Below are positions 8,566-44,792 of a DNA stretch of 64,000 nt, in pieces. Source of the DNA: a virus; the IMG/VR virus record IMGVR_UViG_3300031111_000008, positions 1 to 64,000 of that record. The stretch is one strand, 5' to 3'. The position numbers and the translations under genes are program-made. How positions within the stretch are numbered: position 1 is the first letter of the stretch; every line of letters starts with the position of its first letter. Below the pieces are notes generated by a model, which did not search any database, was not told the origin of the DNA, and saw nothing but the letters and a program-made list of their open reading frames with translations.

Positions 8566-10584
8566 ATGAAACGGATGATAACATTCTCTGAAGCGATGAT
8601 GGTCTCGGCGTGCCACGGGATGAATTCCGAGGCATCCGAACTCTGGCAAGGTCTCCAGGGTCTCTGGCTACCCGCTCTGGGGCCGACTGGGGCAAAGCTG
8701 TTTGACGTTTCGGGAAGGGGAAGACATGGTACGTTCACAAACAGTCCAACGTGGGTAATGACAAGCAGGGGGGCGGCGTTAAATTTTGTAGCAGCATCAA
8801 CACAAGACATTGCTCTCCCTTCCACATCGGTGGGAGAGCCGTTGACGATGGCTGGTTGGGTGTGGCGGTCGAACTATGACACCGGAACGCAATGTGTAGT
8901 TTCCGGGCATTCAGGAGCAACTAACTTTCGGGAGCTAGCAACCAGTTCTAATGACGTGCATCTGCACGAGCGGGCTGCGGAGGGTGTCTCAAATACTCAG
9001 TCAGTAGTGAATTGCCTAACTAACGGACAATGGCATTTAATAGCTGGCATTTGGATCAGCGATACTGCTCGGTATGGATACGCAGACGGGAAATTGGTAT
9101 GCAGCAATGTTGCTGATACGAGAAGCGTCAATCCATTCACGGCTGGCTATATTGGGCGGGTAATCACGTATAACCACTACATGGATGGTCGAGTCGGTAG
9201 CGTTGGGATATGGAATCGGGCACTAAGTGTGAACGAGCTTCAGATTCTTTACGAAGCCCCCCTCGCCATCGTCACCCCGCGAGTCAAAGTCTACCCGGCG
9301 GCAGCGGCGGAGGAGGATGAATCCAGCATTTCAACCTCTTCATCCAGTTCTTCGATTTCAACCTCTTCATCCAGTTCTTCGATTTCGACATCGAGTTCGA
9401 GTTCGAGTGTTTCGACCTCGTCGTCGTCGTCGAGTATTTCGACTTCTTCTTCAAGCTCCAGCATTTCAACCTCTTCATCCAGTTCTTCGATTTCGACATC
9501 GAGTTCGAGTTCGAGTGTTTCGACATCGAGTTCGAGTTCGAGTGTTTCGACTTCTTCTTCAAGCTCTAGCATTTCAACCTCTTCATCCAGTTCTTCGATT
9601 TCGACATCGAGTTCGAGTGTTTCGACCTCGTCGTCGTCGTCGAGTATTTCGACTTCTTCTTCAAGCTCCAGCATTTCAACCTCTTCATCCAGTTCTTCGA
9701 TTTCGACATCGAGTTCGAGTGTTTCGACATCGAGTTCGAGTTCGAGTGTTTCGACTTCTTCTTCAAGCTCTAGCATTTCAACCTCTTCATCCAGTTCTTC
9801 GATTTCGACATCGAGTTCGAGTTCGAGTGTTTCGACCTCGTCCCAGTCTCAAGAAAGCAGCGTTTCGACTTCGTCATCTTCTATTTCGACTTCTTCTTCA
9901 AGCTCTAGCATTTCAACCTCTTCATCCAGTTCTTCGATTTCGACATCGAGTTCGAGTGTTTCAACCTCGTCGTCGTCGTCGAGTATTTCGACTTCTTCTT
10001 CAAGCTCCAGCATTTCAACCTCTTCATCCAGTTCTTCGATTTCGACATCGAGTTCGAGTTCGAGTGTTTCGACATCGAGTTCGAGTTCGAGTGTTTCGAC
10101 TTCTTCTTCAAGCTCTAGCATTTCAACCTCTTCATCCAGTTCTTCGATTTCGACATCGAGTTCGAGTGTTTCAACCTCGTCGTCGTCGTCGAGTATCTCG
10201 ACTTCGTCATCATCCTCAAGCATATCTACTTCTAGTTCTTCTTCATCTATTTCTACTTCATCTTCCAGTTCCTCGGTTTCGACATCAAGTTCGTCATCTT
10301 CTGTTTCGACTTCGTCATCCAGTTCTTCGATTTCGACTTCTTCATCGAGTTCGAGTGTTTCGACTTCTAGCAGTTCTAGTAGCGTTTCAACGAGTTCTAG
10401 TAGCCAGTCGGGAGAATCTTCGAGCAGTTCATCCTCCTCTTCCATTTCGACTTCGTCATCCAGCAGTATTTCAGGAGTGATTGACTTTCCAGCCAGTAAG
10501 ACAGTATCGAGCGTTGGAGCAACTTCATCCTCCGTGAGCAGCGTTGGTCCTTCATTATCACAAATATCAGAGGCGGTTCGATGA
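8566..10584 (+). CDS. LamG/concanavalin A-like domain protein with ~380 aa serine-rich C-terminal region
   Basis: DVSGRGRHGT, TMAGWV, GQWHLIAG, YADG, IG, IWNRALS (LamG_3 pattern); then S6-(I/V)-S-T repeats. Confidence 0.9.
   Translation: MKRMITFSEAMMVSACHGMNSEASELWQGLQGLWLPALGPTGAKLFDVSGRGRHGTFTNSPTWVMTSRGAALNFVAASTQDIALPSTSVGEPLTMAGWVWRSNYDTGTQCVVSGHSGATNFRELATSSNDVHLHERAAEGVSNTQSVVNCLTNGQWHLIAGIWISDTARYGYADGKLVCSNVADTRSVNPFTAGYIGRVITYNHYMDGRVGSVGIWNRALSVNELQILYEAPLAIVTPRVKVYPAAAAEEDESSISTSSSSSSISTSSSSSSISTSSSSSSVSTSSSSSSISTSSSSSSISTSSSSSSISTSSSSSSVSTSSSSSSVSTSSSSSSISTSSSSSSISTSSSSVSTSSSSSSISTSSSSSSISTSSSSSSISTSSSSVSTSSSSSSVSTSSSSSSISTSSSSSSISTSSSSSSVSTSSQSQESSVSTSSSSISTSSSSSSISTSSSSSSISTSSSSVSTSSSSSSISTSSSSSSISTSSSSSSISTSSSSSSVSTSSSSSSVSTSSSSSSISTSSSSSSISTSSSSVSTSSSSSSISTSSSSSSISTSSSSSSISTSSSSSSVSTSSSSSSVSTSSSSSSISTSSSSSSVSTSSSSSSVSTSSSSQSGESSSSSSSSSISTSSSSSISGVIDFPASKTVSSVGATSSSVSSVGPSLSQISEAVR
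9322..10470 (+). repeat. coding tandem array for Ser-rich domain (27- and 21-nt units; 35-bp core x8)
   Basis: AGCATTTCAACCTCTTCATCCAGTTCTTCGATTTC exact at 9325, 9460, 9568, 9670, 9772, 9907, 10009, 10117. Confidence 0.95.
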
Positions 10585-10916
10585 GTTTGGTTTACGCATA
10601 CCGGGGACGGAATAAGACAGTAGACATTGTGATTAAGAACGCCGATGGTGATACAATTACCCCCGGTGGAAATGACAAGGTCCGAATTGCAATCGAACGA
10701 GAGGGCGAAGCGGCCAAGTTGGCAGTCACTAGTGGAACACCCACGGCAAATGGGAGTAGCATCACAAAGGGCGCTTCCAGCAGAGTTCGGTTGGACGCTT
10801 CGGACTTGTTGTTTTCGCCAGGAGTCTATACAATGCGGGTGGACTATTTTGACTACGATGATGACGAGGATTGGAAGATGGTAGACAAACAAGTGTTTCA
10901 TTTGGAAGCTGTGTGA
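10581..10916 (+). CDS. hypothetical Ig-like/beta-sandwich virion protein
   Basis: ATGA coupling; PGVYTMRVDY. Confidence 0.7.
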   Translation: MSLVYAYRGRNKTVDIVIKNADGDTITPGGNDKVRIAIEREGEAAKLAVTSGTPTANGSSITKGASSRVRLDASDLLFSPGVYTMRVDYFDYDDDEDWKMVDKQVFHLEAV

Positions 10917-10927
10917 GGGAAGTAGTC

Positions 10928-12034
10928 ATGGGTATTGGATCACCACAAGGCATATTTGCATTTTCGGATTTGTCGGATAACCTACCGCCAATACTTAGGG
11001 CGACGGTGGGTTGTGGCGATTTGTATATCCATTTAGACAGATGTTTCGAGGCCGACGAGAACGCCCCGTGGAGGTATTTCGTTGAGTGCGATGTTGGCGG
11101 AACGGATAGTAACTACTACGGTCGACCCAGATGGAAGTATGCGCCGCAAGCTGGTGATGCAGGGGATCATGATTGGACGATCCATCGGTATTACGACAAT
11201 ACAGAAATACTACCGGCAATTACCAAGACGTTGACAGTTTCGGCTGGAACGTCAACAGCTGCAAGGAAATTGTGTGTGGTCGGTGATTCGACTGGAGAGG
11301 AGCGTAATATCAACGCTGTGATGCGGTTGGATGGCTCAGGGATGACTGTGACCACAGTGGGGGATGTGTCTGATTCGGGAACGGATTCGGAAGGTGGTTC
11401 GCAGAGTTTCGATCACGAAGGCCACTCGGCGTGGACGCTAAACTCGTTCATCGCTAGGACGGATTCACCGTTCGTTTCCGCTCCGAATGTTGTGGATTTT
11501 CCAACGTGGGTGACGGCGAAGGGGTTTGCGGCAGGCGATTTTATGTATTGGGCTCTGGGTATTAACGATGTGGTGTTCCTCACAACGGATGCGGATGTAG
11601 ACGCTGCTATCGCTTCGTGGCATGTTGATCTGGAGAAGTTGATAGGAATGAGTGATTCCCCACCAGCTAGCAGCTTGCGGGGAGCCGAGCCCGGAGCGAT
11701 TGTCTTGATCGATTTGGTCATCCCCCCTGCACCAGAAGAGGCTTGGGATGCAACTGGTCAAAACCAATGGTTCTATCGTCGATCCATTCACAAGTTACGA
11801 AGGATGCTGATCGATACGTACGCAACAGCAGCCTATCGAGCTAAGAATATACACATTCTTGGTAGCAATCTGATGGTTCCCCAGTTGTATGGTTGGGAAA
11901 CAGCGATGGAAGCAATCAGTGATGTCGCTGATCCTCAGATTGAGCGGGTAGACGACCGTATTCATCCGGATCCTGTAGTCTATTACAAGATCGGTGACCA
12001 TATCGCTACATGGGTTCTAGCCCTTGGAGGATAA
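10928..12034 (+). CDS. SGNH/GDSL hydrolase domain protein
   Basis: Blocks GDST, EGHSAWT, LGIND, DRIHP. Confidence 0.85.
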   Translation: MGIGSPQGIFAFSDLSDNLPPILRATVGCGDLYIHLDRCFEADENAPWRYFVECDVGGTDSNYYGRPRWKYAPQAGDAGDHDWTIHRYYDNTEILPAITKTLTVSAGTSTAARKLCVVGDSTGEERNINAVMRLDGSGMTVTTVGDVSDSGTDSEGGSQSFDHEGHSAWTLNSFIARTDSPFVSAPNVVDFPTWVTAKGFAAGDFMYWALGINDVVFLTTDADVDAAIASWHVDLEKLIGMSDSPPASSLRGAEPGAIVLIDLVIPPAPEEAWDATGQNQWFYRRSIHKLRRMLIDTYATAAYRAKNIHILGSNLMVPQLYGWETAMEAISDVADPQIERVDDRIHPDPVVYYKIGDHIATWVLALGG

Positions 12035-12038
12035 GACA

Positions 12039-12806
12039 ATGAAAAAGATTATTCCGTCTCTTCTAGCCCTCGTTGGTATACTAGGGGCTATTACAGTAGT
12101 TAATTTGTTTCCGCCTGTTGAGGAGGCTCACGCCCAACGTCGCCGGATGACCAACCAGTACCCCTCTGGCACCGATCAACACTTCATCGGCGGCATCGAG
12201 CTGGAAGGCTCGAAGGGCATTGCTATCAACTCCAGCGTCTCCACCGCGATGCTCTACGGCAAACAGTTCGCCGATGAATCGGCAATCACGATCATCGACA
12301 ACGACTCATCCGCAAATTTCAAGCTGCACATCAAGGGAAGCACAACCCAGTTCACATGCTCAGACAATATGTGGCTCATCAGTGGTACTGACAAGTCGAT
12401 TGAATTGCGGCCAGGAACGGGCGACCTCGTGTTAGCCGATGGTAGTGCGTATCCATACGACAGCCGCATGAAGTTTGACTTAGTGGAAACACCCGCTACG
12501 GGCAGAATTCTCATCAACGAAGATTCGGAGAAGACTTATACATGCGGTGCTAGTTATGATGCCAAGTGGGGCTACGATGGAAGCAACCTAGTGTTTACAC
12601 TACTCAGTGGAACCGTTGACATACCCGCTCTGGGTCTGCTAGAAAAGTCAGCCGATCCAGCAGAACCCGCTGAAGGTAAGACCGTAATCTGGATGAGCGA
12701 TGGTACTGGCAAAGGTGATGATGGGGATGTACTGATAGCTGGCAGGGTTGGTGGTGCAACTAAATGGACCATTCTATTCGATCATTCCGCTGGTACGAAT
12801 TGGTAG
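12039..12806 (+). CDS. hypothetical protein with signal/TM segment and fibre-like C-terminus
   Basis: GGAGG RBS; MKKIIPSLLALVGILG; beta-rich Gly/Thr sequence. Confidence 0.7.
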   Translation: MKKIIPSLLALVGILGAITVVNLFPPVEEAHAQRRRMTNQYPSGTDQHFIGGIELEGSKGIAINSSVSTAMLYGKQFADESAITIIDNDSSANFKLHIKGSTTQFTCSDNMWLISGTDKSIELRPGTGDLVLADGSAYPYDSRMKFDLVETPATGRILINEDSEKTYTCGASYDAKWGYDGSNLVFTLLSGTVDIPALGLLEKSADPAEPAEGKTVIWMSDGTGKGDDGDVLIAGRVGGATKWTILFDHSAGTNW

Positions 12807-12826
12807 AGCTGAACTAGGATAGCATA

Positions 12827-13507
12827 ATGTCGAAAGAGATTTATCTTCCTGGAACGTTTGGTTTTTCGGCTGTGGTTGCCGAAGTGAAAGACCAGAGCCG
12901 GAATGTCCGCAGTGCTACTCCAGCATTGGTTGATCCGGTATCGTTGGACTTGGCGGGATGGCAAGGCGGACTTGTTACTTGTACGAAGGAAGTGGACGAC
13001 GACGGGGTCGAGACGGGGTGGTATGCCGATTGGACGGATACGGGATTAACAGCGTCGGGGTTGTATTCGATCCGATTTTTCAACACAGCAACGCCTACGC
13101 GGGACGCTTCGGCGGTCGGGACACAGTTCGACCCGACTGAGTATTTGCTAGCGAATCAAGTAACGATGTTGGCGAACCAAGTAACGATGTTAGCAAATCA
13201 AGTAACGATGTTGGCGAACCAAGTGAGCATGGCGGCAACACTGGCTTCAATTGCTAGTGTGGTAGGTGTAGTAGGCGAAGGCGCTGTTGAGACAAATGTG
13301 TACACACAAGATGGTTCTGGCAATCCACTAGACGGTGTTGAGGTATGGATAACAAGCGATTCTGCGGGCAGTGTTCCAGTTGCCGGGCCGTTAGTGTCAG
13401 ATGCAATGGGTCTCACTACGTTCATGCTAGATGCCGGGACATACTACTTGTGGCGTCAGTTGTCGGGGATGAATTTTCAAAATCCTCAGACACTTGTTGT
13501 TGCATAA
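12827..13507 (+). CDS. virion-associated protein with LANQVTM heptad repeats and C-terminal Ig-like domain
   Basis: 21-bp repeat x4 at 13148-13231; GNPLDGVEV...DAMG...LDAGTYY. Confidence 0.75.
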   Translation: MSKEIYLPGTFGFSAVVAEVKDQSRNVRSATPALVDPVSLDLAGWQGGLVTCTKEVDDDGVETGWYADWTDTGLTASGLYSIRFFNTATPTRDASAVGTQFDPTEYLLANQVTMLANQVTMLANQVTMLANQVSMAATLASIASVVGVVGEGAVETNVYTQDGSGNPLDGVEVWITSDSAGSVPVAGPLVSDAMGLTTFMLDAGTYYLWRQLSGMNFQNPQTLVVA

Positions 13508-13555
13508 ACATCGAAAAGAAATTAAACAACTCTACGTATTGGACGGGTTGCTGAT

Positions 13556-14398: not shown

Positions 14399-14400
14399 GA

Positions 14401-15918: not shown

Positions 15919-17550
15919 ATGAATGCTATAACGAAGGCAGTGCAACGGAGCGCAGGTATTTCTGAAGCCGCAAGAGTAGGATCTTCGGGGAAAAAAGCTG
16001 CCGATTTTGGGGATGCTCTGTCTTCGATTGGTGGCGGGACTACCGTTACCAATATCTCTGATCAGGGGAAGTACCAATATCGGTACAACCTATTTAGAGG
16101 ATGGCTGTATTCTGCCGTCCATGCGTTGGCTTCCAAGGGAGCTGGTCAGGATTTGAATTTGGGAATACTGACGGAAAGCGCCAGTTACGAGGAGGATCGG
16201 GGAAGCCGTTTGAGAAACAAGCAATTTCTGCTCAACAAGATGACTACCCACGCTTCTTCCCGATTGCAAAAGTCTCCCAATTTAGAAGTTGAGGTTTTGG
16301 CAAGGTCTCCCATTCTCGACGCTTTGGAGAAGCCTAACGACATCCAGGATAGGTGGCAGTTTACGTACTTGTTCATTGCCAACCTGGCTCTTACGGGCTG
16401 GTCCTATGTCGTTATCGATACGAGTGATGAGGGCAAGTTGGAATTCTATTCTATTCCAACTACTTGGGTAACTCCTCTACCGGATGACAAAGGTAATCCG
16501 TTTGGAAAATTCAAGATCAAGAACCCAAAGAAAGGAGATGTTGAAGGGCAGGATTTTGACAAGGAGCATGTGGCATTTGCGTATCTGCCCAATCCGAGCG
16601 ATCCTCTCGCTGCCTACGCACCGTCGTCTGCCCAGTTAGCGGCGATTCAGATCGACGACAAGATCCAAACGTCTCAGGATGCTTTCTTCGACAACGGCAT
16701 TTTTCCCAATGCTGTCGTCACTGTGGGTAAGAATCCTCATCCCGACGTGCCTGGAGGGATACGGCCCAGACTGACGGCAGCTCAGCGTAGGCAGGTCCAC
16801 GGCGTTATTGGGCGGATGATGCGGGGGGTGAACAAGTATGGGAATCCGGCCATCGTGGATGGGTACATCGAGAGCGTTACCCCGTTCTCGTTGACTCAGA
16901 ACGAGATGGGGTGGGATAAGTCTGAGGACAAGGTCCGCTCCAGGATTCTGAGTGCCTATGGGGTTCATCCTTACATTCTTGGAGAGCCCGTAGGTGTAGG
17001 TGGGTATGCTCAGGTAGCGGGTATCGAGAGGGTGTTCTGCGACAGGGTGAACACTTATATCAACATGCTGGGCAACGTACTGACGAACAAGCTGGTGAAT
17101 CTGACAGGGGATGGAAACCTGCTGGTCTGGTGGGACAAATGCGAACCACTGGATCCCAACGTCCGAAACTCGATGCTGAAGGAAGCTCGGAAGAATGGAG
17201 ATATCACGAGAGATGAGTATCGAGCTGAATTGGGATTATCTCCAATGAGGGAGGGTTCGGACAGGAGCAAGCTGTTGGAGAATCCCGTGGTTTTCAGTTC
17301 CATGCTGAAAGTGCAGTCGGATCTGGGACTGTTGGATGCTCAGACATTGGCAGAGATTTACCAATTGTATTTGGGGATCACTTCCGAAGAAGCCGCGTCC
17401 GTTACGGGTTCTTCCAGCAAAAGTGTTGAACATCAAATTCTGAAGGCTCTGGGCGAAGTGGCTGCTAGTGTAAAGGAACAGAAGATTCTGTTGGACAAGA
17501 CGGAAGTTGATGAGAATGTTGGCAGAATTTTGGATGGTGTCCACTCATGA
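15919..17550 (+). CDS. portal protein (HK97 family)
   Basis: LEKPN, LALTGWSY, FFDNGIFP, ILSAYGVHP, ITRDEYRAELGLSP. Confidence 0.92.
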   Translation: MNAITKAVQRSAGISEAARVGSSGKKAADFGDALSSIGGGTTVTNISDQGKYQYRYNLFRGWLYSAVHALASKGAGQDLNLGILTESASYEEDRGSRLRNKQFLLNKMTTHASSRLQKSPNLEVEVLARSPILDALEKPNDIQDRWQFTYLFIANLALTGWSYVVIDTSDEGKLEFYSIPTTWVTPLPDDKGNPFGKFKIKNPKKGDVEGQDFDKEHVAFAYLPNPSDPLAAYAPSSAQLAAIQIDDKIQTSQDAFFDNGIFPNAVVTVGKNPHPDVPGGIRPRLTAAQRRQVHGVIGRMMRGVNKYGNPAIVDGYIESVTPFSLTQNEMGWDKSEDKVRSRILSAYGVHPYILGEPVGVGGYAQVAGIERVFCDRVNTYINMLGNVLTNKLVNLTGDGNLLVWWDKCEPLDPNVRNSMLKEARKNGDITRDEYRAELGLSPMREGSDRSKLLENPVVFSSMLKVQSDLGLLDAQTLAEIYQLYLGITSEEAASVTGSSSKSVEHQILKALGEVAASVKEQKILLDKTEVDENVGRILDGVHS

Positions 17551-33560: not shown

Positions 33561-33577
33561 AACCAAGGGAAAGCAAG

Positions 33578-34585: not shown

Positions 34586-34597
34586 GGAGAGTCCGAA

Positions 34598-35669: not shown

Positions 35670-35670
35670 A

Positions 35671-36462
35671 ATGAACTTTACAACAGTCTGCGGTTTGGAT
35701 CGTAGACATCTGGAACAGCTTAGTCTAGTCTGGCCGACATGGAAGAAGAACAAGCCAGACATTCTCAAGAACCCAATGCTTGTTTTCTATGATTATGAAC
35801 AAGTGAGCCATGAGCAAGTTCAAGAGGTTTTGGATCATCCAAATCTGGAGATCCGTTACTGGCCAAGATGGAAAATTTTTTACGGTATAGGTGACGGCAG
35901 TAAGTGGGCAGAACCTCAGCGAGTGAAGATGCTAACGGGTTTTGTCTACATCTCAGGGCTGTTTGTAAAAACCAAATACTGGTTGAAGCTGGATACAGAC
36001 GTAATCGCCCGTGATCAGCCAGATTGGATAAATCCAGACTGGTTCAAGAACGATCCTGCTATTGTTTGTCCTCCGTGGGGTTTTACTCGTCCTCCTGAGC
36101 AAATGCTTTTCATGGACGATTGGGTAGAGCAGAACAAGAACAGGTTTCCTTTCCAAGAGATTGCTGGAAAGCCGCCTCTGGATCTTCATCCAGACCAAGG
36201 TGAGGATCGTGTGAAGCATAAGAGGATTTGCAGTTGGTGTGGCTTCTTCAAATCTTCTTTGTCTAGGACATGCTTTCAGCTGGCGCAGGCTGGGTGTGGG
36301 CCAGGATTCCTACCGATCAATTCTCAGGATGGGTATATGTGGTATGTAGCGAAGAGGCTTGGTTTGGGAATCGAGCGTGTCAGGATGAAGAATTTGGGTT
36401 GGGAGACTTGGAGTAATAGGGGGAATCTCGTGAAAAATACAATGGAGATTATGAATGCCTAG
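35671..36462 (+). CDS. GT-A glycosyltransferase-like protein
   Basis: YWLKLDTD DxD motif; SQDG. Confidence 0.7.
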   Translation: MNFTTVCGLDRRHLEQLSLVWPTWKKNKPDILKNPMLVFYDYEQVSHEQVQEVLDHPNLEIRYWPRWKIFYGIGDGSKWAEPQRVKMLTGFVYISGLFVKTKYWLKLDTDVIARDQPDWINPDWFKNDPAIVCPPWGFTRPPEQMLFMDDWVEQNKNRFPFQEIAGKPPLDLHPDQGEDRVKHKRICSWCGFFKSSLSRTCFQLAQAGCGPGFLPINSQDGYMWYVAKRLGLGIERVRMKNLGWETWSNRGNLVKNTMEIMNA

Positions 36463-37144
36463 CAGATTGATGAGAAGATCTGGTACTTCTGCCGTCCACA
36501 TGAGCAAGCTGATTGGTTGGAGACCAAAGACGGTGATTCAAGCTGGTATTGGTTTGAATTGGGAAGAGGTTGATTGTTTTATGGAGCAATGGCCCGACAT
36601 CCATTTTGAAGGATTTGAACCCAATCCGTTGTTGATTCGGAAATTGAAGAAGGCTAACTATCCAGGCAACTACTATCCCTACGCCATTGGGGATGCTAAA
36701 GGGATTGGAGAACTGCGGTATCGACGGAGACACAAAGATGGTTCGTCCCTGAACGATATTGGAGACAAGGAGGATGAACCCACCAAAACTGCTTCGGTGG
36801 AAATCGTGACCTTGGACGAGTTCTTTGCGGGCACAGTTTTTGAGCAGCCAATTCTTCTATGGTTGGATTGCGAAGGGTATGAACTGAAAGCTTTGCGCGG
36901 AGCCGAAGCTTTTCTTGAAGGCGTGGGCATGATCAATGTTGAGATGACAGGAAATCCCAATGGGGAGGGTTGGTGCAAACCTTGGGAAGTGCATCGGTTC
37001 ATTGTCGATCACGGTTTTGTTCTCCAATACATCCACACGTTTCGTAACCACCAAGGGCAGTACGACGGGCTGTACGTACGTCCTTGCATGTTCCATCTCG
37101 AATACAGCTGTTCTCCTTGCAGATGCAAAGATTGTGGGAGCTAG
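36455..37144 (+). CDS. FkbM family methyltransferase
   Basis: GFEPNP, YAIG, VTLD, LWLDCEGYELKALRG. Confidence 0.88.
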   Translation: MPSRLMRRSGTSAVHMSKLIGWRPKTVIQAGIGLNWEEVDCFMEQWPDIHFEGFEPNPLLIRKLKKANYPGNYYPYAIGDAKGIGELRYRRRHKDGSSLNDIGDKEDEPTKTASVEIVTLDEFFAGTVFEQPILLWLDCEGYELKALRGAEAFLEGVGMINVEMTGNPNGEGWCKPWEVHRFIVDHGFVLQYIHTFRNHQGQYDGLYVRPCMFHLEYSCSPCRCKDCGS

Positions 37145-37145
37145 A

Positions 37146-37718
37146 ATGAGAAAAAAGAAAAAGAAGATTCTTCACCATGAAGTAATCATCAAGTTCCTTC
37201 AGCGGGAAGGTTTTAAGGATGGAGACTTTGTGGGTTGTGAGGTTGGAGTGTTTACATCCAGAACTTCTGTAAATCTACTGGAAGCTTTTCCCAAACTGTT
37301 TCTGTACATGGTAGATCCTTGGGATTCTAATAATACCGAAGGATCTTTGAAAGTTCACCGCACCAAAAGGTTTATGGATACTATTTGCGAAGAGGCTTAC
37401 CAAAAGACCAAGTTTGCAAGAAGCAGGCGAGAGATTATGAGGATGGTAAGTGTAGCAGCTTCGCGGGTTGTTGACGACGAATCTTTGGATTTTGTCTTCG
37501 TGGATGCTGGACATTTTTACAAGCAGACAAAGTCCGACTTGGAAGCTTGGTGGCCAAAAGTAAAGAGTGGTGGTTTTCTCATAGGGCATGATTACAACGG
37601 ACGCATGGAGAAGAATGGAATCTGGGGAGTGAAGAAGGCTGCTGATGAGTTCGCTAAGAAAAATGGAGTGGAGATAGAACTGCACGAAGCGTTGATCTTT
37701 ACCACCAAGAAACCATAA
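37146..37718 (+). CDS. class I SAM methyltransferase (Methyltransf_24-like)
   Basis: CEVGV, VDPW, DFVFVDAGH, GGFLIGHDY. Confidence 0.88.
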   Translation: MRKKKKKILHHEVIIKFLQREGFKDGDFVGCEVGVFTSRTSVNLLEAFPKLFLYMVDPWDSNNTEGSLKVHRTKRFMDTICEEAYQKTKFARSRREIMRMVSVAASRVVDDESLDFVFVDAGHFYKQTKSDLEAWWPKVKSGGFLIGHDYNGRMEKNGIWGVKKAADEFAKKNGVEIELHEALIFTTKKP

Positions 37719-37720
37719 TT

Positions 37721-38635
37721 TTGAGTGTTCCAATGAGATCCCGAGTAGTTTATCTGATGAGCGGTAGTCCGCACTTGCCCTATCTTGTCTGTTCCCTTTG
37801 GACGCTGAGAAAACATTGGGAGGGTAAGCTGACTATCTGTGCTTGGCCCGAGGCTTATGATCTGACGTTACGAATTGCCCAAGACGAAAGACTAGCGGTC
37901 TCGGACGTGCGGGAGAGGGATCCGCAGTTTACAGAACGGAACGGTAGTTGTGTAAATCATTCTCTTGATAAGATCAGGATGATTCAAGAGATGAAGGACA
38001 AAACGGATGTTGTGATGTACATCGATGCTGATACTACAATCCATTACACCATTCAACCCCTGCTGGACATTGGTTTTCAGTATGGTTTTGTGGCTACTCA
38101 GTTCAATGATTGGTTATCCACGGGAAACAAAGCCAGAGGACGCCTGAAGAAGTTTCTAGGCATAGAGGGCATAGATCAGTCAATCGTGCAGTTGATGATG
38201 AGGGAACCTTGGCCTAGCGTCAACAGTGGTGTGTTTGTTGCCCGTCCAGGCTCTCCCGTGCTGGAAACCTACTACAACTATACATACGCAGCCAGGAAGG
38301 TTTTCATTGCTGACGAGACGGCTTTGAATCTCATGCAACCGTTGTACCGTCCTCTGCGGCAATTGGTTACAGTAGGGGATAATGGCAAATGGAACTGCTC
38401 TCCGAAGTTCCAATCCAAAAAGCTTGCCGATGAAGACATTGCAGTACTCCACTTCCACGGCGATTCCTGCGTTCGTCCAGAAAAGAAGAGTCAGAGAGGT
38501 TTTGATTTGTGGTGGCCGATCTATCAAGAGTGCCTCCGAGAAAATGTGGGAGGGATGGCAGAATGGAAAGACTCGATCAGAACCAAATATCTAGGTCCGC
38601 TTGAAAAGCAGTTGGCGGAAGAAGCTTCTGAGTAG
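37721..38635 (+). CDS. GT-A glycosyltransferase (GT8-like)
   Basis: SL.TLR, K, YIDADT, NSGV, DE.ALN, WN, HFHG. Confidence 0.8.
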   Translation: MSVPMRSRVVYLMSGSPHLPYLVCSLWTLRKHWEGKLTICAWPEAYDLTLRIAQDERLAVSDVRERDPQFTERNGSCVNHSLDKIRMIQEMKDKTDVVMYIDADTTIHYTIQPLLDIGFQYGFVATQFNDWLSTGNKARGRLKKFLGIEGIDQSIVQLMMREPWPSVNSGVFVARPGSPVLETYYNYTYAARKVFIADETALNLMQPLYRPLRQLVTVGDNGKWNCSPKFQSKKLADEDIAVLHFHGDSCVRPEKKSQRGFDLWWPIYQECLRENVGGMAEWKDSIRTKYLGPLEKQLAEEASE

Positions 38636-38642
38636 AATTTAT

Positions 38643-38980
38643 ATGCCCAAGCCGACGATTGATCAGAGTGAGCACGATTTCCAGTTCACCAAACGCTGGT
38701 TTCGTACGTCGCAAGAGAAAATCGTTTTGGTGTGGGTAGAGGTTCTGTTGATCTGATCATGGTGGATGGACATCACAAAAGCTTTGCTGTCGCTGAGGAT
38801 GCTAGGATTAGTTTACGGCTGCTGCGGCAGGGAGGATGGTTGCTGTTTGACGATGTTGAAAACATGCGAAAAAAGAAGGATCATGTAAAGCAAGGAATAG
38901 AATTGTTTTTGTCCAAACATAGTTGCAGGGTAAAACTACTCTGGAAACATCATTTTATGGAGGCATATCAAAAGCTATGA
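38643..38980 (+). pseudogene. internally deleted and frameshifted Methyltransf_24-like gene
   Basis: N-terminus MPKP...FTKRWF joined out of frame to VDLIMVDGHH...GGWLLFDD; SAM motif I missing. Confidence 0.65.
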
Positions 38981-39759
38981 AAGGAAATCCTGCCGACGTT
39001 CCCAAGGAAGCTGCTTTAGCTCCAGCAGAGATTCCGCCTGATGTGACTACTGCCAGGTTCATGCTCCATATCACGTATGATTGCAATCTCTCATGCAAAA
39101 TGTGTGACAGGTTTACAGATGTGTCGAGATGGGAACATGCAAGCATGACTATAGAGGACATCATCCGTGGTTCGGAGATGTGTCTCAAGAGTTATGTCAA
39201 CGCTGTTTGGGTCAAGGTGGCTGGTGGAGAACCTATGGTTCATCCTCAGTTCTACGAGTTGTGTGAAGCTATTAAAAAGAATTGGATGCACACTCGCATA
39301 ACTAGATTCACAATAGCTTCAAATGGAACAATTCCTCTCAAGGAAAATCACAATCTCCGAGTACGGGTGTCTACTCCTGATGAAAAATATCATCAGCCTT
39401 GCATGATTTCTCCAAAGGATCTTGGAGAGAATCCTATTATGGGCTACACAAGGATTTGTAAATCCATCATGCGTTGTGGCAGAATGTTCGACACCTTTGG
39501 CTTCACGTCATGCGCCTACGCTGGCGTAATCGGGAGGATGATAAACTACGATCCTTACCGAGAACGTCCCGTGTTGTTTGGAGATATTCGGATTTGCGAA
39601 CATTGTCCAATGTCACTTTCTCACAGGCGCAGAACTCAATTGCGGAAGCAGGTGGCGGAAGGGAAAATCGAATACCCCACAAAGACGTACAGGGAAGGAA
39701 TCGAGAGACTTCGAGATGAACCTGTCACCTTTCCCAAATTTCAAGAGCGTTTGCAGTGA
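38977..39759 (+). CDS. radical SAM protein with C-terminal Cys cluster
   Basis: CNLSCKMC (CxxxCxxC), GGEP, SNG, CEHC. Confidence 0.9.
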   Translation: MKGNPADVPKEAALAPAEIPPDVTTARFMLHITYDCNLSCKMCDRFTDVSRWEHASMTIEDIIRGSEMCLKSYVNAVWVKVAGGEPMVHPQFYELCEAIKKNWMHTRITRFTIASNGTIPLKENHNLRVRVSTPDEKYHQPCMISPKDLGENPIMGYTRICKSIMRCGRMFDTFGFTSCAYAGVIGRMINYDPYRERPVLFGDIRICEHCPMSLSHRRRTQLRKQVAEGKIEYPTKTYREGIERLRDEPVTFPKFQERLQ

Positions 39760-40544
39760 AGACGATTGAGATAGTTTCCCATTGCCAAGCAGTTCAAAAT
39801 CCTTGGTATGCCTCTCTGCTGAATTACCAACTGAGCAGTTTGTTTTTGTATCCGTCTAAGAACTGTAAGATTCTTGTCACAATTTGTTGCAACCGAGAGG
39901 ACGTCAGAACAAATCGAGTCTTGAATTTTTACAAGCCAAAATTGGATTTGAACATCATTTATCAACCTTTTCCTGAATTGGGTAGAAGATCCATCGGCAG
40001 AGATTTGGTAGCACGTAGGACGGAAGCGGATATCGTTTGGTTTACCGATGTGGATTTCCTGTTTCGTGACAGTTGTTTGCAAACGCTAGTTGAACACCCC
40101 TGGAGTGGTTGTGTGGAAGGACTTCCACACAAAGACTCTCCTGCAATAGTCTATCCTTCAGTGATTCAAGCGCAGCGATTGGAACAAGGACTAAAGCTAT
40201 CTCCAGACAAACTTTTGATAGGGTTAGTAGACATCGACGAGAAAGAGTTTGAACCTTTGGAATTTGATCGTCCGACAGGGGCTTTGCAGATCATTAAGGG
40301 GCCATTAGTTAGAGAGTGGGGATACTGCCGCGACAACCACCACGAACTCCCAGAAGATGGTAGCTTTGATAGATGCCTTGGGGATCCTACTTTCCGAAGA
40401 ATGTACAGGAACAAAGGGCATTGGAAACCCATAGATTTGCAAGGAGTGTACCGATTACGACATCCTCTGCGCGAAGGGCATAGACTCAAGAAGATAGAAG
40501 AGAAAAGGCTGAGACGCCAGAAATTACGGGAGAATAATGGCTAG
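39756..40544 (+). CDS. GT-A (GT2-like) glycosyltransferase, paralog 1
   Basis: RSIGRD...TEADIVWFTDVD. Confidence 0.75.
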   Translation: MKTIEIVSHCQAVQNPWYASLLNYQLSSLFLYPSKNCKILVTICCNREDVRTNRVLNFYKPKLDLNIIYQPFPELGRRSIGRDLVARRTEADIVWFTDVDFLFRDSCLQTLVEHPWSGCVEGLPHKDSPAIVYPSVIQAQRLEQGLKLSPDKLLIGLVDIDEKEFEPLEFDRPTGALQIIKGPLVREWGYCRDNHHELPEDGSFDRCLGDPTFRRMYRNKGHWKPIDLQGVYRLRHPLREGHRLKKIEEKRLRRQKLRENNG

Positions 40545-41226
40545 GTTTCTTGGTGACACAAATGACTTTTTTCTGCACATACCTCGGACAGGAGGTTCTT
40601 GGATCCAAAAAGCTTTGGACGCGAGTAAGATCAGAACCTTTCTGTGGAATTCTAGAAGACCTTCCCAGATAGCCATGAAGCATTTTCTGCTGGGACATAT
40701 TGAGTACGACAGTCTCGCAAAGTTGAATCGAGTATTTACTTTCGTACGGCACCCAATTTCATACTATGAGTCTGTCTGGGGTTGGATGATGGAATCGAAA
40801 GGCAGTAGAAACAATTGGAGAATACTCAAGCGGTACGATTGGCATCCACATTTGGCAGCAATAAATAGTTTCCATCCTGATTTCAATGCTTGGTTACAGT
40901 CGTTGTTAGACAAGGAGCCTTGCTGGTACACTCGCTTAGTGGAGCAGTACGTTGGTCCTCAAGGAGGAGAGTTTTGTGATTATATAGGACGTACTGAAAC
41001 ACTGACGTCTGATTTCTTTAGAATATTGGAATGGTTGGGTTACAGTGAGCAGGTTGTGAAACACAGGGACGAGGTTGAGAAGCTGGGACGAATCAATCCA
41101 TCTATACGGAAACCGGAATGGGAAACTTCTTTGGTGGAGCGGGTAGTACACGAAGAACGGCGAGTGGTTAAAAGATTTTATGGTGCTGATGAGCACCGTA
41201 GATTTTATGGTTCTCGTACTCTGTGA
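40537..41226 (+). CDS. sulfotransferase-family protein
   Basis: FLHIPRTGGS (5'-PSB-like), FVRHP...S, YIGRTETL..DF. Confidence 0.8.
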   Translation: MARFLGDTNDFFLHIPRTGGSWIQKALDASKIRTFLWNSRRPSQIAMKHFLLGHIEYDSLAKLNRVFTFVRHPISYYESVWGWMMESKGSRNNWRILKRYDWHPHLAAINSFHPDFNAWLQSLLDKEPCWYTRLVEQYVGPQGGEFCDYIGRTETLTSDFFRILEWLGYSEQVVKHRDEVEKLGRINPSIRKPEWETSLVERVVHEERRVVKRFYGADEHRRFYGSRTL

Positions 41227-41978
41227 AAGGTTTTGTGGTGGATGTTGAAATTGTTTCTCACTGCTATTCGGAAAGTGATCCTTGCTACGCCGTCTTTTTG
41301 GATTTTCAACTTAGTTCGATTCTGCTCAACCCTTCCAGTTGCAAAGTGCAGATGACCGTTTGCTGTACTCCTTCTGACGAGCGTACTCAAAAGGTTTTGG
41401 AGTTCTTCAAAAACAAACTGAATCTGAAGATTATCGAGTTGTCAGTAGAGAAACTGGGCAGAAGAAGCGTTGGTAGAAATATGGCTGCTAAGCAGACAGA
41501 AGCGAATTTTGTTTGGTTTGCAGATACCGATTATCTCTTTGGAGACAACTGCCTAGATACGCTGGTAGAGTATGAATGGGAAAAGAAGAGAGTGTTGGTT
41601 TATCCAAGGAAGGTTCGTTTTCATAAGAGACACGAATTGGGTGATTCTTTAGTAAAACAACATGACGGAACGGTTGGAATTTTTGGTGTCAACGAAGATG
41701 AATTCGTAACCAAAACCAACAAGATGGCTTGGGGAGGAATACAGATAGCCCGTGGAGATCACGTTCGTAAGCACGGTTACTTGGATGGATTTCAGAAGTT
41801 TATGAAGGGGGCCGAAAAACCGTTTGCTGATTTTCGGGATGACGTGCGTTTCCGAAAGTGTTGTGAGAAGAAAGGCATTACTTTACCTCTTAGAATCCCA
41901 AATCTTTATCGGCTTAGACATTCCTACATTTCGTGCCGCAGACGGCCTGGGCATGTTCCACTAAACATCCGAGATTAG
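41223..41978 (+). CDS. GT-A (GT2-like) glycosyltransferase, paralog 2
   Basis: RSVGRN...VWFADTD. Confidence 0.75.
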   Translation: MKGFVVDVEIVSHCYSESDPCYAVFLDFQLSSILLNPSSCKVQMTVCCTPSDERTQKVLEFFKNKLNLKIIELSVEKLGRRSVGRNMAAKQTEANFVWFADTDYLFGDNCLDTLVEYEWEKKRVLVYPRKVRFHKRHELGDSLVKQHDGTVGIFGVNEDEFVTKTNKMAWGGIQIARGDHVRKHGYLDGFQKFMKGAEKPFADFRDDVRFRKCCEKKGITLPLRIPNLYRLRHSYISCRRRPGHVPLNIRD

Positions 41979-41997
41979 TTTTGCTGAGGAGATTCAC

Positions 41998-42711
41998 ATA
42001 AAGATCATCGAGATAGTTACGCATTGCCAATCCATAAGACGGGACTTTTACGCCGCTCTTTTGAACTACCAACTCAGCAGCTTGGTTATTTATCCCCCAA
42101 CGAAATGTCATGCTAGAGTTACTGTTTTCTCCAGCCGTGAAGATGAACGCACCCAGAAGGTTCTTGAGCATTTTTTGGGTCTAGACAAACTAGATTTGAA
42201 TTGTGTGTATCAGCCTTTGGAGGAATTGGGAAGAAGATCTATCGGGAGAGACTTGGCGGCAAAGAAAACAAAAGCGGACATTGTCTGGTTTACCGATGCG
42301 GATTTTTTATTTCGAGATGGGTGCCTGGATTCTTTGGCAACCAAGCAATGGAGGGATGGTACTGCTGCTGTAATCCCCAAGAAATTTAGGGTGAGCAGAA
42401 GCGAGCAGTTTGGGATGAAAGCCATTAAGAGGGTGGATCGTCCCAGGGTTCTGGACATAAAAGAGGATGAATTCGGAAATTCTATCTGTACTCGCATGTT
42501 GGGAGCTTTGCAAATAGTCAGAGGACCAGAAGTAAAATCTTGGGGTTATTGTCGGGGTCATAGATACCACCAATTACCTACAGATGGAACATTTGAAAGA
42601 TGTCGTAGCGATACCGAGTTTCGACGGTTCTGGGGGACGAGGGGCGATGTGCAGAGAATCGCTATACCCAATCTGTATAGGATATTACATCCCCATCCTC
42701 CCCGAAGGTGA
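41998..42711 (+). CDS. GT-A (GT2-like) glycosyltransferase, paralog 3 (apparent ATA start)
   Basis: RSIGRD...VWFTDAD; homology extends upstream to ATA-AAG-ATC-ATC-GAG after GAGGAG. Confidence 0.7.
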   Translation: MKIIEIVTHCQSIRRDFYAALLNYQLSSLVIYPPTKCHARVTVFSSREDERTQKVLEHFLGLDKLDLNCVYQPLEELGRRSIGRDLAAKKTKADIVWFTDADFLFRDGCLDSLATKQWRDGTAAVIPKKFRVSRSEQFGMKAIKRVDRPRVLDIKEDEFGNSICTRMLGALQIVRGPEVKSWGYCRGHRYHQLPTDGTFERCRSDTEFRRFWGTRGDVQRIAIPNLYRILHPHPPRR

Positions 42712-42771
42712 GAGAGAAAACTAATTAACCAACCAGAAGAAGTTCTCGTGACAGAATAATAGTATTGAAAA

Positions 42772-43299
42772 ATGATTGAATTTACAAACTTTCAGTTAGC
42801 CAGTCCTCCACTGGTTGGAGGAGGTTGGTTGCTTGAAGTTCTTTTGCGGCAGAAGGTGTGTCCAACGGAAAGAGTTTCTTGTACGCGGGAACTGCTTCAG
42901 CCTTTCCCAAACGGAAAAACCAATGATCGTTTAAGAATTTCTTTTGTCAGACATCCTTGCGACTGGTTGTGTGATGTGTTCAGTCGGGAAGTTTTGTTGG
43001 ATAATGACATAGACCTTCTACCCCGAACTAGCCTGGATGATTTTGTCAAAGCTTATCTGGATCGGTTTCCTGGTTTGATTTCTAAAATCTTCCTTTCGTA
43101 CAAAGCAGGTTCTTTTCTGCGTGCCGAAGACCTGCCAGGGTGTGCTTACGAACTGCTGGAAATGCTTGGGATACCAAGACCGGAAACAGTGCCTCAGCTA
43201 ACCCATTTGAGACTTGCTCCCAAATTGAGTAGTAAGAACCTACGTCGAGAACTCAGAAAAGCCGAAGAGGAGATATTTGATGCCTTCGACTACTACTAA
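42772..43299 (+). CDS. degenerate sulfotransferase-like protein
   Basis: ISFVRHP.DWL, FLRAEDL; 5'-PSB motif eroded. Confidence 0.55.
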   Translation: MIEFTNFQLASPPLVGGGWLLEVLLRQKVCPTERVSCTRELLQPFPNGKTNDRLRISFVRHPCDWLCDVFSREVLLDNDIDLLPRTSLDDFVKAYLDRFPGLISKIFLSYKAGSFLRAEDLPGCAYELLEMLGIPRPETVPQLTHLRLAPKLSSKNLRRELRKAEEEIFDAFDYY

Positions 43300-44026
43300 G
43301 GGGAAAGTTGCAATCGTCATTCCTGCCCGCATGGAAAGCAGTAGGTTGCCTAACAAACCATTGCTGCCCATCCAAGGCAGACCAATGCTCTGGCATACGT
43401 ATGATAGAGCTAGGCAATCCAAAGCGGATCATATTATAGTCACTACTCCAAACAAAGAGATTGCTGAGTATTGCCAAACAATGAATATGATATGGATGGG
43501 ATCCTCTACAGAAAACCAGAACGGGACTCAGAGGGTTGCTGAGATTGCCGAGAAGCTGAGGACCGAAGCGGGAATTGAAACTATCATCAATTTGCAGTGC
43601 GATGAGTATTGCATTAAACCAGAAGATTTGGATTGTTTTATCGACTTCTCCATCGACTCCTTTTACGACAAGCTTTGCTTTGATGTCTGCACGATAGCTG
43701 CTCGGAGATGTTCCTGGGGGAGTCTTGACGATTTCAGCATAACCAAGGTAGTTGTTTCGGTGAGTAATCGAGCCCACTGGTTCAGCCGAGCCCCTATGGG
43801 AGGATCTCTTTTTCATTGTGGTATCTATTCTTACCCTCTACGTGAACTGATCTCGCTAGGGCAGCTTCCTCCTTCGAGTCTCAGCAAATGCGAAAGCTTG
43901 GAGCAGCTGACTTTTCTCGAAGACGGTCGTTTGGTAGGTGCTCTTGTTGTGGATGAGCTTCCCAGATCTCTCAACACAAAAGAAGAGTATGATGAAATCA
44001 GACGACAAGAATTGGAAGTCAATTGA
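43277..44026 (+). CDS. kdsB: CMP-Kdo synthetase-like cytidylyltransferase
   Basis: IPARMESSRLPNKPL, NGTQR, INLQCDE, FSRAP, HCGIYSY, ESLEQL. Confidence 0.85.
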   Translation: MMPSTTTKGKVAIVIPARMESSRLPNKPLLPIQGRPMLWHTYDRARQSKADHIIVTTPNKEIAEYCQTMNMIWMGSSTENQNGTQRVAEIAEKLRTEAGIETIINLQCDEYCIKPEDLDCFIDFSIDSFYDKLCFDVCTIAARRCSWGSLDDFSITKVVVSVSNRAHWFSRAPMGGSLFHCGIYSYPLRELISLGQLPPSSLSKCESLEQLTFLEDGRLVGALVVDELPRSLNTKEEYDEIRRQELEVN

Positions 44027-44792
44027 AATTGTTGTTCATTGTTATGCGAAAGAACGTCCTTGGTATGCTGCTCTGTTTTGTTACCAGTTTTCTTCTTTAG
44101 TTCTATTTCCTCCCTCCTGCAATGTGCGGCTAACTCTCTTCTGCGATCCAAAAGATGAGGTGCTTGGAAAGTTTCTGGATTTCTTTTGCAAGCACTATTT
44201 ATTTGGAGTCGACTTGAATGTTATCCATAAGGATGTTTCCAAGCTCGGACGGCGGGCGATAGGAAGAAATGAAGCGTCGAAGAGTACCAATGCCGATATT
44301 GTCTGGTACACGGATCCCGACTATGTTTTCGAGCAAGGATGTTTGGATGCTTTGTCAAACACTACTTGGCCCGACAACGCAGTGCTGCTATTTCCCCATT
44401 CAGTCTTCGAGCAGTACCCAAAGCGAATAGACGTTCCCGAATTGAGAGATCTTGTAGAGAGACCTCGGCTGGCGCGTCTAGCTCCTCACGAGAAGTGTAT
44501 CAGCTTTTATAGTCATGCGTTCTTCAGGGCGATGGGATCGATTCAAATCGTTCAAGGCGACTTTGCCAGAAAGTATGGATATTGTCCCCATCATGATAAA
44601 TTCCAATCTCCAACAGACAGTCCTTTTGATGGTTACTCTTCACAGTCGGATCTGTCTTTTCGACTCGGCTGCAAACGGATTGCTAGAAACGCTGACTTCC
44701 AGCAGCCGGTAGACATTCCTAACATTTACCGCATGTCTCATCCGTCGCGACGGCATTCGGCGGAGAAGGCAAAACTAAAATGTGGGTGGTAG
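43989..44792 (+). CDS. GT-A (GT2-like) glycosyltransferase, paralog 4
   Basis: RAIGRN...VWYTDPD. Confidence 0.75.
   Translation: MMKSDDKNWKSIEIVVHCYAKERPWYAALFCYQFSSLVLFPPSCNVRLTLFCDPKDEVLGKFLDFFCKHYLFGVDLNVIHKDVSKLGRRAIGRNEASKSTNADIVWYTDPDYVFEQGCLDALSNTTWPDNAVLLFPHSVFEQYPKRIDVPELRDLVERPRLARLAPHEKCISFYSHAFFRAMGSIQIVQGDFARKYGYCPHHDKFQSPTDSPFDGYSSQSDLSFRLGCKRIARNADFQQPVDIPNIYRMSHPSRRHSAEKAKLKCGW

Follow-up and report, generated by a model that had tools for sequence, protein, structure and literature searches.

Background

Glycosylation by phages of their own particles has, to our knowledge, been shown so far for a few mycobacteriophages only. In these phages it alters antibody recognition. 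Giant viruses, such as the chlorovirus PBCV-1 with its Vp54 and mimivirus with its fibrils, bring their own multi-enzyme kits, methyltransferases included, and glycosylate their particles without host secretory machinery. Here we analyze a window of 64,000 nucleotides (nt), bases 1-64000 of the 92,111-bp IMG/VR virus record IMGVR_UViG_3300031111_000008 (G000 below; CheckV completeness estimate 97%), in which three genes end in long serine-rich runs and a Maf-like putative protein O-glycosyltransferase gene, followed by a cluster of predicted glycan enzymes, adjoins the tail genes. From comparative genomics we propose, at a probability of about 0.55, that these elements form a coupled system for cytoplasmic, phage-encoded O-glycosylation of virion-module proteins on dedicated poly-Ser modules.

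Maf enzymes O-glycosylate Ser and Thr residues of flagellin in the cytoplasm, before export (PMC11339370; bioRxiv 10.1101/2020.06.03.131540). CbMaf of Clostridium botulinum accepts both CMP-Kdo (the cytidine monophosphate derivative of 3-deoxy-D-manno-octulosonate) and CMP-Neu5Ac (that of N-acetylneuraminic acid), and Aeromonas Maf favours Ser/Thr with apolar flanks (PMC11339370). PMC12619734 and PMC12363180 describe glycosyltransferases of the mycobacteriophages Che8, Corndog and Myrna that modify the C-terminal regions of the phages' own virion proteins. In Gram-positive bacteria, co-encoded enzymes O-glycosylate the very long Ser-rich repeats of the adhesins Fap1, GspB and PsrP while these are still in the cytoplasm, and glycosyltransferases (GTs) of the GT8 and GT2 types then extend the glycans (PMC7948813; PMC6973325). 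A literature search, made in an incomplete library, found no paper on poly-Ser phage tags with a Maf-like enzyme.

Like the mycobacteriophages, G000 carries phage glycosyltransferase genes beside structural genes, in a cluster that starts at the last tail-module gene and runs on the same strand. It differs from them in its presumed acceptors, which are separate proteins with poly-Ser modules rather than the capsid and tail-tube subunits, and in enzyme family, as judged from the Maf-like protein only, for which a tblastn search of 50,697 GenBank phage records gave nothing at E <= 1e-3. The tailoring cluster is also much larger, with predicted sulfation and methylation, and the hosts are probably not actinobacteria. 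With the serine-rich repeat adhesins the phage system has in common long Ser-rich repeats that apolar residues or Thr break up, but Pfam searches of the cluster genes and a segment scan found no GtfA/GtfB-type GT-B priming pair, no accessory Sec system (SecA2/SecY2), no signal peptide and no LPXTG or other cell-wall anchor, and the context is viral, not that of a bacterial adhesin locus. Giant viruses infect eukaryotes, glycosylate other acceptor sites with other enzymes, and lack a poly-Ser tag.

Serine-rich tails of three phage proteins

Three plus-strand open reading frames (ORFs) carry C-terminal runs of 84-406 amino acids (aa) that are ~75% Ser (73-75%), punctuated by Ile, Val and Thr; in G000 the module reads S5-7-(I/V)-S-T. 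The longest run belongs to a LamG/ConA-like lectin domain protein encoded at 8566 (or 8554)-10584 on the plus strand (Pfam Laminin_G_3 at residues 83-229, E 1.1e-12). Its poly-Ser region of ~400 aa is followed by a short non-repeat C-terminus; the repeat proper spans 9304-10521 on the same strand (406 aa, 296 of them Ser) and is built from 27-nt units (SSISTSSSS) nested in higher-order repeats of 102-339 nt. A second plus-strand gene, 19608-20294, lies in the head module between a gp7-like gene (17547) and a protease/scaffold-like gene (20966); its conserved N-terminal domain of ~105 aa, ending ..ILSMEDL, is followed by a 122-aa Ser tail (19920-20294), or 122-131 aa when the start is placed at 19902/19920. 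The third, 25926-26741, also on the plus strand, comes after the capsid/connector genes and ahead of the tape measure gene and encodes a 187-aa N-terminal domain, ending ..YILGRSDTDE, with an 84-aa Ser tail (26484-26741; 84-93 aa for starts at 26463/26484).

An earlier note, made from the letters of this DNA, had described these as three mutually unrelated genes, one of them for a LamG protein, which end in a common Ser-rich repeat and lack signal peptides. Our results agree. The 92-kb genome, translated in six frames, contains the motif SS[IV]STSS 51 times, in every case inside the three tails; the three N-terminal parts have no significant BLAST similarity to one another; and a scan of the three proteins for hydrophobic segments of signal-like or membrane type came back empty. 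The tail lengths that had been claimed, ~380, ~115 and ~85 aa, need correction to 406, 122-131 and 84-93 aa.

On the coding strand of the whole genome these three tails are the only Ser-rich stretches, and the capsid gene (22654-24228) does not end in one. The tails use all six Ser codons and stand out from a background of 6.2% Ser (nine sure genes), so that they are neither chance nor simple microsatellites. The longest exact DNA words common to the three tails are 16-20 nt, which argues that the motif is maintained at the protein level. On the same ground (exact words <=16-20 nt) we rejected DNA-level gene conversion as the source of the common motif in G000, and likewise recent duplication. 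With codons mixed, length and sequence free and presence kept, the tails appear to be under selection for composition rather than sequence.

G000 is a member of a large uncultured clade of siphovirus-like phages of ~85-106 kb. Fourteen contigs were fetched by their capsid protein (49-62% identical), among them the complete genomes G001 (100 kb, with terminal repeats) and G002 (88 kb), and in both of these Ser tails are present together with the Maf-like gene and with a glycan cluster, syntenic to that of G000, that follows the tail genes. The head-module protein ends in a Ser tail in 18/18 database homologues (junction ..LSMEDL-SSSS), and the protein from the tail region has one of 45-235 aa in 41 of its 45 homologues (junction ..GRHDDDE-SSSS), the 4 exceptions lying on contigs of 0.8-2.7 kb. 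Across relatives tail length varies from ~20 to 700 aa and only composition is conserved. The LamG gene, which sits in the variable region between the terminase (2721-4349) and portal (15919-17550) genes, has no homologue in the complete relatives G001 and G002; in the corresponding variable stretch G001 holds an ORF of 2095 aa that contains two Ser runs, 395 and 520 aa long, punctuated by IST as in G000.

The non-Ser residues of the head-module tail and the tail-region tail resemble each other more within a genome than between genomes (mean cosine 0.85 vs 0.51). In an exact permutation test over six genomes p was 0.0056, with IST found in G000 and G001 and Q in the others. This concordance is a hint, from sequence, of one common enzyme that reads both tails.

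For the N-terminal domain of 25926-26741, an AlphaFold2 (AF2) model (pLDDT 81) is a jelly roll, and its structural matches are weak and unspecific: Ena spore appendages (Z 8), the coats of small plant viruses, needle knobs of the P22 type and a phage cement protein. The model thus makes this tail-region protein a jelly-roll and not a tube-like fold. Searched as a profile against PDB sequences, the ~105-aa head-module domain gave nothing significant, and the best match of the two domain profiles was an Ig domain at E 0.21. The neighbours of 25926-26741 had no Pfam, PHROG or PDB matches, so no terminator or tube identity was found for them.

Several variations on these proteins were seen among relatives. 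Two or three jelly-roll paralogues per relative, each Ser-extended, occur in L083 (508-1275, 7539-8549, 9177-9851) and L058 (2722-4245). In L005 the jelly-roll protein (L005:9272-9841) stops right after ..LLGRGV, the sole relative without a Ser tail at that point; this short contig has no detectable head-module homologue and ends before the Maf-like region, and a search for longer relatives of it returned only L005 itself. Fibre-like proteins of distant phages carry, right before the Ser run, a short motif of Cys residues (CC, CCC or CxxC) (L003, L060, L087, L088, G002 at 86707, G009 at 121-125 kb and G010 at 42.7 kb), and may mark a conserved junction.

The Maf-like enzyme

The gene at 33539-34585 (plus strand; likely start 33578) encodes a protein of 348 aa with a Cys-rich N-terminal part and a predicted MptE-like/sialyltransferase-like fold. 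When its AF2 model (pLDDT 90.5) was compared with 48,161 PDB representatives, the best match was the Magnetospirillum Maf 5mu5_A (Z 13.0, rmsd 3.9, 197 aa), followed by the MptE-type HPPK 8sd5 (Z 10.3, 155 aa) and sialyltransferases of GT29 and GT42 (Z 7.8-9.5); thiamin pyrophosphokinases match at Z 5.4-7.4. The first match in Foldseek was CstII. Residues G99-P100-S101, following strand 93-96, are invariant in 30 homologues, with GGGPS as consensus, as are many K, R, D and N residues. GT42 CstII has a nucleotide-binding loop of the Gly-x-Gly-Pro-Ser type after its first strand, of which the GGGPS consensus is a candidate counterpart. The alignment profile of the Maf-like protein gave spurious matches only when searched against PDB sequences.

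The comparison with Maf can be carried further. The phage protein resembles Maf in the fold of the central domain (5MU5, Magnetospirillum magneticum, Z 13.0), and in being a predicted soluble cytoplasmic enzyme. A predicted CMP-sugar synthetase gene lies nearby in G000 and is present in G001, though not in G002. The acceptors of Maf are Ser/Thr residues of a protein that subsequently becomes part of a filament outside the cell. It differs in lacking a PF01973 profile match and in being shorter, with the Cys-rich part in place of the flagellin-binding domains of Maf. Its gene has its place in a phage tail module, where flagellin is absent, and six GT-A glycosyltransferase genes and sulfo- and methyltransferase genes follow it. 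The presumed acceptor is a disordered poly-Ser run, whereas that of Maf lies in loops of a folded domain. On the evidence of the model, the protein is Maf by fold, and not by sequence profile or context.

Searches returned 296 homologues, of which the best 120 all have >=50% identity, many of them on contigs of 71-106 kb. The protein is as conserved as the capsid protein and is the most conserved of the glycan cluster. Tail genes or the tape measure gene lie upstream and glycan enzymes downstream, with no flagellar island. Distant homologues (loci L115-L193) are almost confined to metagenome-assembled genomes (MAGs) of Planctomycetota, Verrucomicrobiota and Lentisphaerota, and one close homologue lies on a short contig binned as Bacteroidales. 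There are hints, from sequence, that phages with the Maf-like gene mainly infect the Planctomycetota/Verrucomicrobiota/Lentisphaerota superphylum.

Co-distribution of serine-rich modules and the Maf-like gene

The earlier note had proposed that co-occurrence of Ser tails and glycan genes be checked in related genomes, and had named independent distribution of the two as the outcome that would speak against its reading. The outcome was the opposite: Ser modules and the Maf-like gene co-occur, in unrelated prophages as well as in relatives. Every relative that covers both regions holds the Ser-tailed jelly-roll protein together with the Maf-like gene (36/36 contigs). We sampled 80 viral loci with a Maf-like homologue (31-60% identity) and 10-kb flanks. 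Where a jelly-roll homologue lay near the Maf-like gene it was Ser-extended in 29/29 loci, by 23-703 aa, and in four seemingly negative loci the Ser-tailed gene lay just beyond the fetched flank. Under a stricter criterion none of the viral loci had a Ser-rich ORF on the strand opposite the Maf-like gene.

A Ser-rich stretch was present in 49/80 of the Maf-bearing viral loci, compared with 3/80 random IMG/VR loci (odds ratio 40, p 5e-16; uncorrected for relatedness and unmatched for host and phage type, this p overstates the case, though the direction is clear). The control loci, 747 kb in total, were drawn by an arbitrary 14-mer, and only one of their three Ser stretches is protein-like.

A further 80 loci came from bacterial assemblies, with Maf-like homologues of 31-38% identity and one of 58% (on a 3.8-kb contig in a Bacteroidales bin). 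Those of 31-38% identity were almost all in Planctomycetota and Verrucomicrobiota MAGs, and 29 of the 80 loci had a Ser-rich ORF within 10 kb. In Phycisphaerales prophages a Ser/Gly-rich gene of 510-620 aa directly follows the Maf-like gene (31-38% identity), on an unrelated backbone in which a fusion of major capsid protein and protease, a head decoration protein and a tape measure precede the pair and an integrase follows it. The Ser/Gly-rich protein at L189:10723-12255 has an apparent Hint/intein-type domain (C-L-L-F-G start, V-H-N end) between its low-complexity arms.

Over all 160 loci, 63/115 Ser-rich ORFs lay at -2 to +1 kb of the Maf-like gene, 22 of them directly adjacent. Mapped on a tree of the Maf-like proteins, this adjacency has switched state 27 times or more, so that it is not one inherited accident, and many members lack it. 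All five distant contigs of 114-192 kb were without a Ser ORF within 10 kb, yet had long Ser-rich ORFs elsewhere. The genomic data support the view that Ser modules and the Maf-like enzyme travel together and are functionally linked.

The predicted glycan enzyme cluster

The cluster occupies 33.5-44.8 kb of the window, abuts the tail genes on the same strand and has overlapping gene ends. It comprises the Maf-like enzyme, six GT-A proteins, three methyltransferases, two sulfotransferase-like proteins, a cupin, a radical SAM (S-adenosylmethionine) enzyme and a KdsB-like enzyme. The gene list that had been drawn up for 33578-44792 survives scrutiny by Pfam, NCBIfam, AF2 models with structure search and the ESM Atlas. 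Pfam matches are good for both Methyltransf_24 proteins, FkbM, Radical_SAM, Sulfotransfer_2 and CTP_transf_3 and weak for the cupin, the GT8 and three GT2 proteins; two GT-A proteins and one sulfotransferase-like protein have structure-level or weak profile support only.

Downstream of the Maf-like gene, and all on the plus strand, lie a small cupin (34598-34987; Cupin_2, weak, E 1.9e-4), which stands beside the Maf-like gene in G001 and G002 too, and a predicted SAM methyltransferase (34984-35532; Methyltransf_24, E 2.9e-15). The next gene (35671-36462), also found in G001 and G002, encodes a GT8/GT15-like GT-A glycosyltransferase, assigned from ESM Atlas structures only (TM 0.64-0.72). An FkbM-family methyltransferase (36455-37144; Pfam E 4.4e-15, NCBIfam fkbM_fam) is followed by a Methyltransf_24/TylF-like O-methyltransferase (36960-37718; E 2.9e-13), whose true start is probably later because the listed one overlaps the FkbM gene. 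A GT8-like glycosyltransferase (37721-38635) is a weak call (Glyco_transf_8 E 0.0013, below cut-off) with counterparts in G001, in two copies, and G002. The radical SAM enzyme (38923-39759; Radical_SAM E 2.4e-10) matches only generic NCBIfam models, its reaction unassigned.

Four GT2-like genes are paralogues with an invariant W-F-x-D-x-D: paralogue 1 (39756-40544), paralogue 2 (41223-41978), paralogue 3 (42061-42711, with a shorter N-terminus; Glycos_transf_2 E 1.7e-6) and paralogue 4 (43938-44792), which keeps the DxD and matches by BLAST the same G001/G002 gene as the others. Interspersed with them are a sulfotransferase (40537-41226; Sulfotransfer_2 E 4.8e-6, above cut-off), a sulfotransferase-like protein (42772-43299), also in G001 and G002, assigned from language-model and predicted-structure (ESM Atlas) evidence only, and a KdsB-like CMP-ulosonic-acid synthetase, a cytidylyltransferase (43277-44026; CTP_transf_3 E 3.4e-29). 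For the last, every top-scoring NCBIfam model is a KdsB model (167 bits, short of the curated cut-offs), and PseF reaches only 28 bits. The stretch 39756-44792 holds four DxD GT-A copies in G000; G001 has three and G002 one. Such copy differences suggest that glycan length or branching varies among close relatives. The core common to G000, G001 and G002 consists of the Maf-like, cupin, Methyltransf_24, GT8/15-like, GT8-like and small sulfotransferase-like genes and 1-3 GT-A paralogues.

None of the fifteen cluster proteins has a membrane segment, and Pfam searches and the segment scan found no polyprenyl-phosphate transferase, flippase, polymerase or membrane protein in the cluster. A search of the genome found no thymidylate-synthase-like hydroxymethylase, and neither KdsA nor adenosine 5'-phosphosulfate (APS) kinase. 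The phage has no sugar precursor pathway, and precursors would therefore come from the host.

Proposed mechanism and alternative explanations

We propose that, on late expression, the Maf-like enzyme would prime the tails by transferring a CMP-activated ulosonic acid to their Ser/Thr residues, the best candidate for this sugar being Kdo or one of its derivatives; a poly-Ser-type peptide such as SSSSSSISTSSSSSS is a putative acceptor. In G000 the KdsB-like enzyme would activate host-made Kdo for this step. The six DxD-type GT-A enzymes would extend the glycan from host nucleotide sugars, the cupin and radical SAM enzyme would tailor a sugar, and the three methyltransferases and two sulfotransferase-like enzymes would cap the chain. 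The product would be a bottle-brush, stiff, hydrophilic and in part anionic, borne on hairs that stick out from the particle. Where the Ser run precedes a further domain it would instead form a glycosylated stalk that holds the domain off the particle; we add a stalk or spacer to the picture because in some relatives the Ser run links to a C-terminal domain. In L055, for example, the jelly roll is followed by a 500-aa Ser run and then a Gly_rich_2 domain, the one informative domain in a Pfam search of nine Ser-rich proteins of relatives. The preference of Maf for apolar-flanked Ser/Thr and its use of CMP-Kdo fit the S-(I/V)-S-T module and the KdsB-like gene. By analogy, then, Kdo is a candidate for the first sugar, though a doubtful one: our confidence is lowered because G002 has no KdsB-like gene, and as that relative is complete the KdsB-like enzyme is not essential to priming.

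A number of observations weigh against glycosylation of the poly-Ser modules by this system. Gene position is what places the three Ser-tailed proteins in the virion, and their neighbours are unannotated; the glycosylation itself is predicted from genes. The Maf-like protein has no Pfam or NCBIfam match, a search of the whole genome with the PF01973 (MptE-like/Maf) profile gave nothing at E <= 1, and its fold class also includes pyrophosphokinases (Z 10.3) and SteA. In G000 no Ser-tailed gene comes closer to the Maf-like gene than 6.8 kb. Co-occurrence within the clade is not independent evidence, and the KdsB-like gene, present in G001, is absent from the complete G002. In relatives that were checked the Ser run is an internal linker (e.g. 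L038, L053, L055, L059), and poly-Ser linkers are able to act unmodified as spacers.

In an unlikely but serious alternative, the Ser runs would stay unmodified and serve as spacers or "entropic bristles" that are flexible and hydrophilic, and the cluster would act elsewhere, for example on host lipopolysaccharide or capsule during infection. Polyserine linkers do occur in secreted bacterial carbohydrate-active enzymes, the Ser run joins two folded domains in several relatives such as L055, cluster content differs between relatives as in surface-glycan clusters, and no sugar precursor pathway is encoded (no KdsA, no APS kinase). A cluster that remodels surface polysaccharide would be hard to reconcile, however, with the lack of any membrane protein, polyprenyl-phosphate transferase, flippase or polymerase, and the Maf-like fold points to a protein acceptor. 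Idle spacers would also leave the tight linkage of Maf-like and Ser genes in unrelated backbones, far above the random control, and the concordance of tail motifs within genomes to be accounted for. We think it less probable still that virion proteins are glycosylated with another primer than the Maf-like protein, whether a GT-A primes or the acceptors lie elsewhere, at capsid or tube termini, with the Ser tails as bystanders. Enzymes of the GT8 and GT2 types build the glycans of bacterial serine-rich repeat adhesins, and the Maf-like protein lacks a sequence-profile match to Maf. The acceptors in mycobacteriophages are capsid and tail-tube C-termini, according to PMC12619734 and PMC12363180. 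Yet the Phycisphaerales prophages pair Maf-like and Ser/Gly-rich genes, and a scan of ten ORFs of the partly annotated locus L189 against PHROGs found no GT cluster; the Maf-like gene is the most conserved of its cluster while GT-A content varies; and the capsid protein 22654-24228 has no special tail.

Two other explanations are very improbable. The Maf-like protein might be a (pyro)phosphokinase-type enzyme of the MptE/thiamin pyrophosphokinase fold class, the Ser tails being phosphorylated or phospho-linked. The structural matches to HPPK 8sd5 (Z 10.3) and thiamin pyrophosphokinases (Z 5.4-7.4) fit such an enzyme, but Maf matches best and over a longer stretch of residues (197 vs 155), Foldseek ranks sialyltransferases first and the surrounding genes are glycan genes. 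The other, to which we attach slightly less weight again, is that the cluster hypermodifies phage DNA with sugars and that the Ser tails are unrelated to it. We know of no DNA-sugar pathway with sulfotransferases, a KdsB-like enzyme or a Maf-like fold, and the positional linkage to Ser-rich genes would be left unexplained. The cluster does border replication genes (the SNF2 helicase at 44802 and the DNA methylase at 48853), and phage glycosyltransferases often act on DNA (PMC12619734; PMC13326640), but the genome has no thymidylate-synthase-like hydroxymethylase.

Glycosylation of the poly-Ser modules by the phage's own enzymes is thus probably a variant of phage self-glycosylation, well supported by genomics. 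The earlier note had further read the Ser repeats as a portable mucin-like tag. The linkage of Ser modules to the Maf-like gene, the soluble enzymes encoded on the same strand and the coherent chemistry speak for that reading, which has to be amended in that the Ser run is sometimes a linker and not a free tail. In its broadest form the idea is more tentative: poly-Ser would be a portable tag of tailed phages, tuned to each genome, and on whatever structural protein gains it the Maf-like enzyme and a variable kit would make mucin-like, methylated bottle-brush hairs or stalks, acidic through ulosonic acid and sulfate, and widespread environmental phages, many linked to Planctomycetota or Verrucomicrobiota, would in this way build a particle glycocalyx. 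Candidate roles of the coat are shielding from proteases or antibody-like molecules, adhesion to surfaces or polysaccharides, mimicry and effects on host range. If the proposed system holds, uncultured environmental phages would commonly glycosylate their particles, by means of a simple, transferable acceptor tag and an enzyme family so far known only from flagella. It would bear on resistance to proteases and grazing, on sticking to surfaces and polysaccharide matrices, and on host range. The poly-Ser tag and a soluble cytoplasmic O-glycosyltransferase, which may accept CMP-Kdo, would make a compact pair for glyco-engineering.

Genome setting

Nearly all genes in the window are on the plus strand. 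PHROGs matches identify, on that strand, the large terminase (2721-4349), portal (15919-17550), SPP1 gp7-like head morphogenesis protein (17547-18626), protease/scaffold-like protein (20966-22552), major capsid protein (22654-24228) and tape measure protein (28597-31146), and because of these terminase, portal, head, capsid and tape measure genes we regard G000 as a siphovirus-like tailed phage. An SNF2 helicase gene starting at 44802 borders the glycan cluster on the replication side, and replication genes, with a DNA methylase at 48853, lie beyond. A megablast search with the head region gave zero matches in the 50,697 GenBank phage records and, as the tblastn search with the Maf-like protein was empty too, there is no cultured relative to lean on.

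Within the 11.5-kb stretch from terminase to portal, 4434-13507 has no homologues in G001 or G002 except for a small gene at 10581-10916; G001 and G002 hold their own variable stretches of 11-14 kb between terminase and portal. Minus-strand Ser-rich frames at 57033-57239 and 67174-67308 were rejected as genes because they are mirror frames of plus-strand genes. The wider minus-strand open frame around the first of them, 56676-57350, mirrors the plus-strand gene 56842-57717, where the GC skew is extreme (0.38). The very left end of the contig (1-173) is made up of 8.6 head-to-tail copies of the 20-bp unit CAGCCTGCCGTCCTGGCGTC; this may be a repeat that belongs to the genome end or to packaging, or else an end effect of the assembly.

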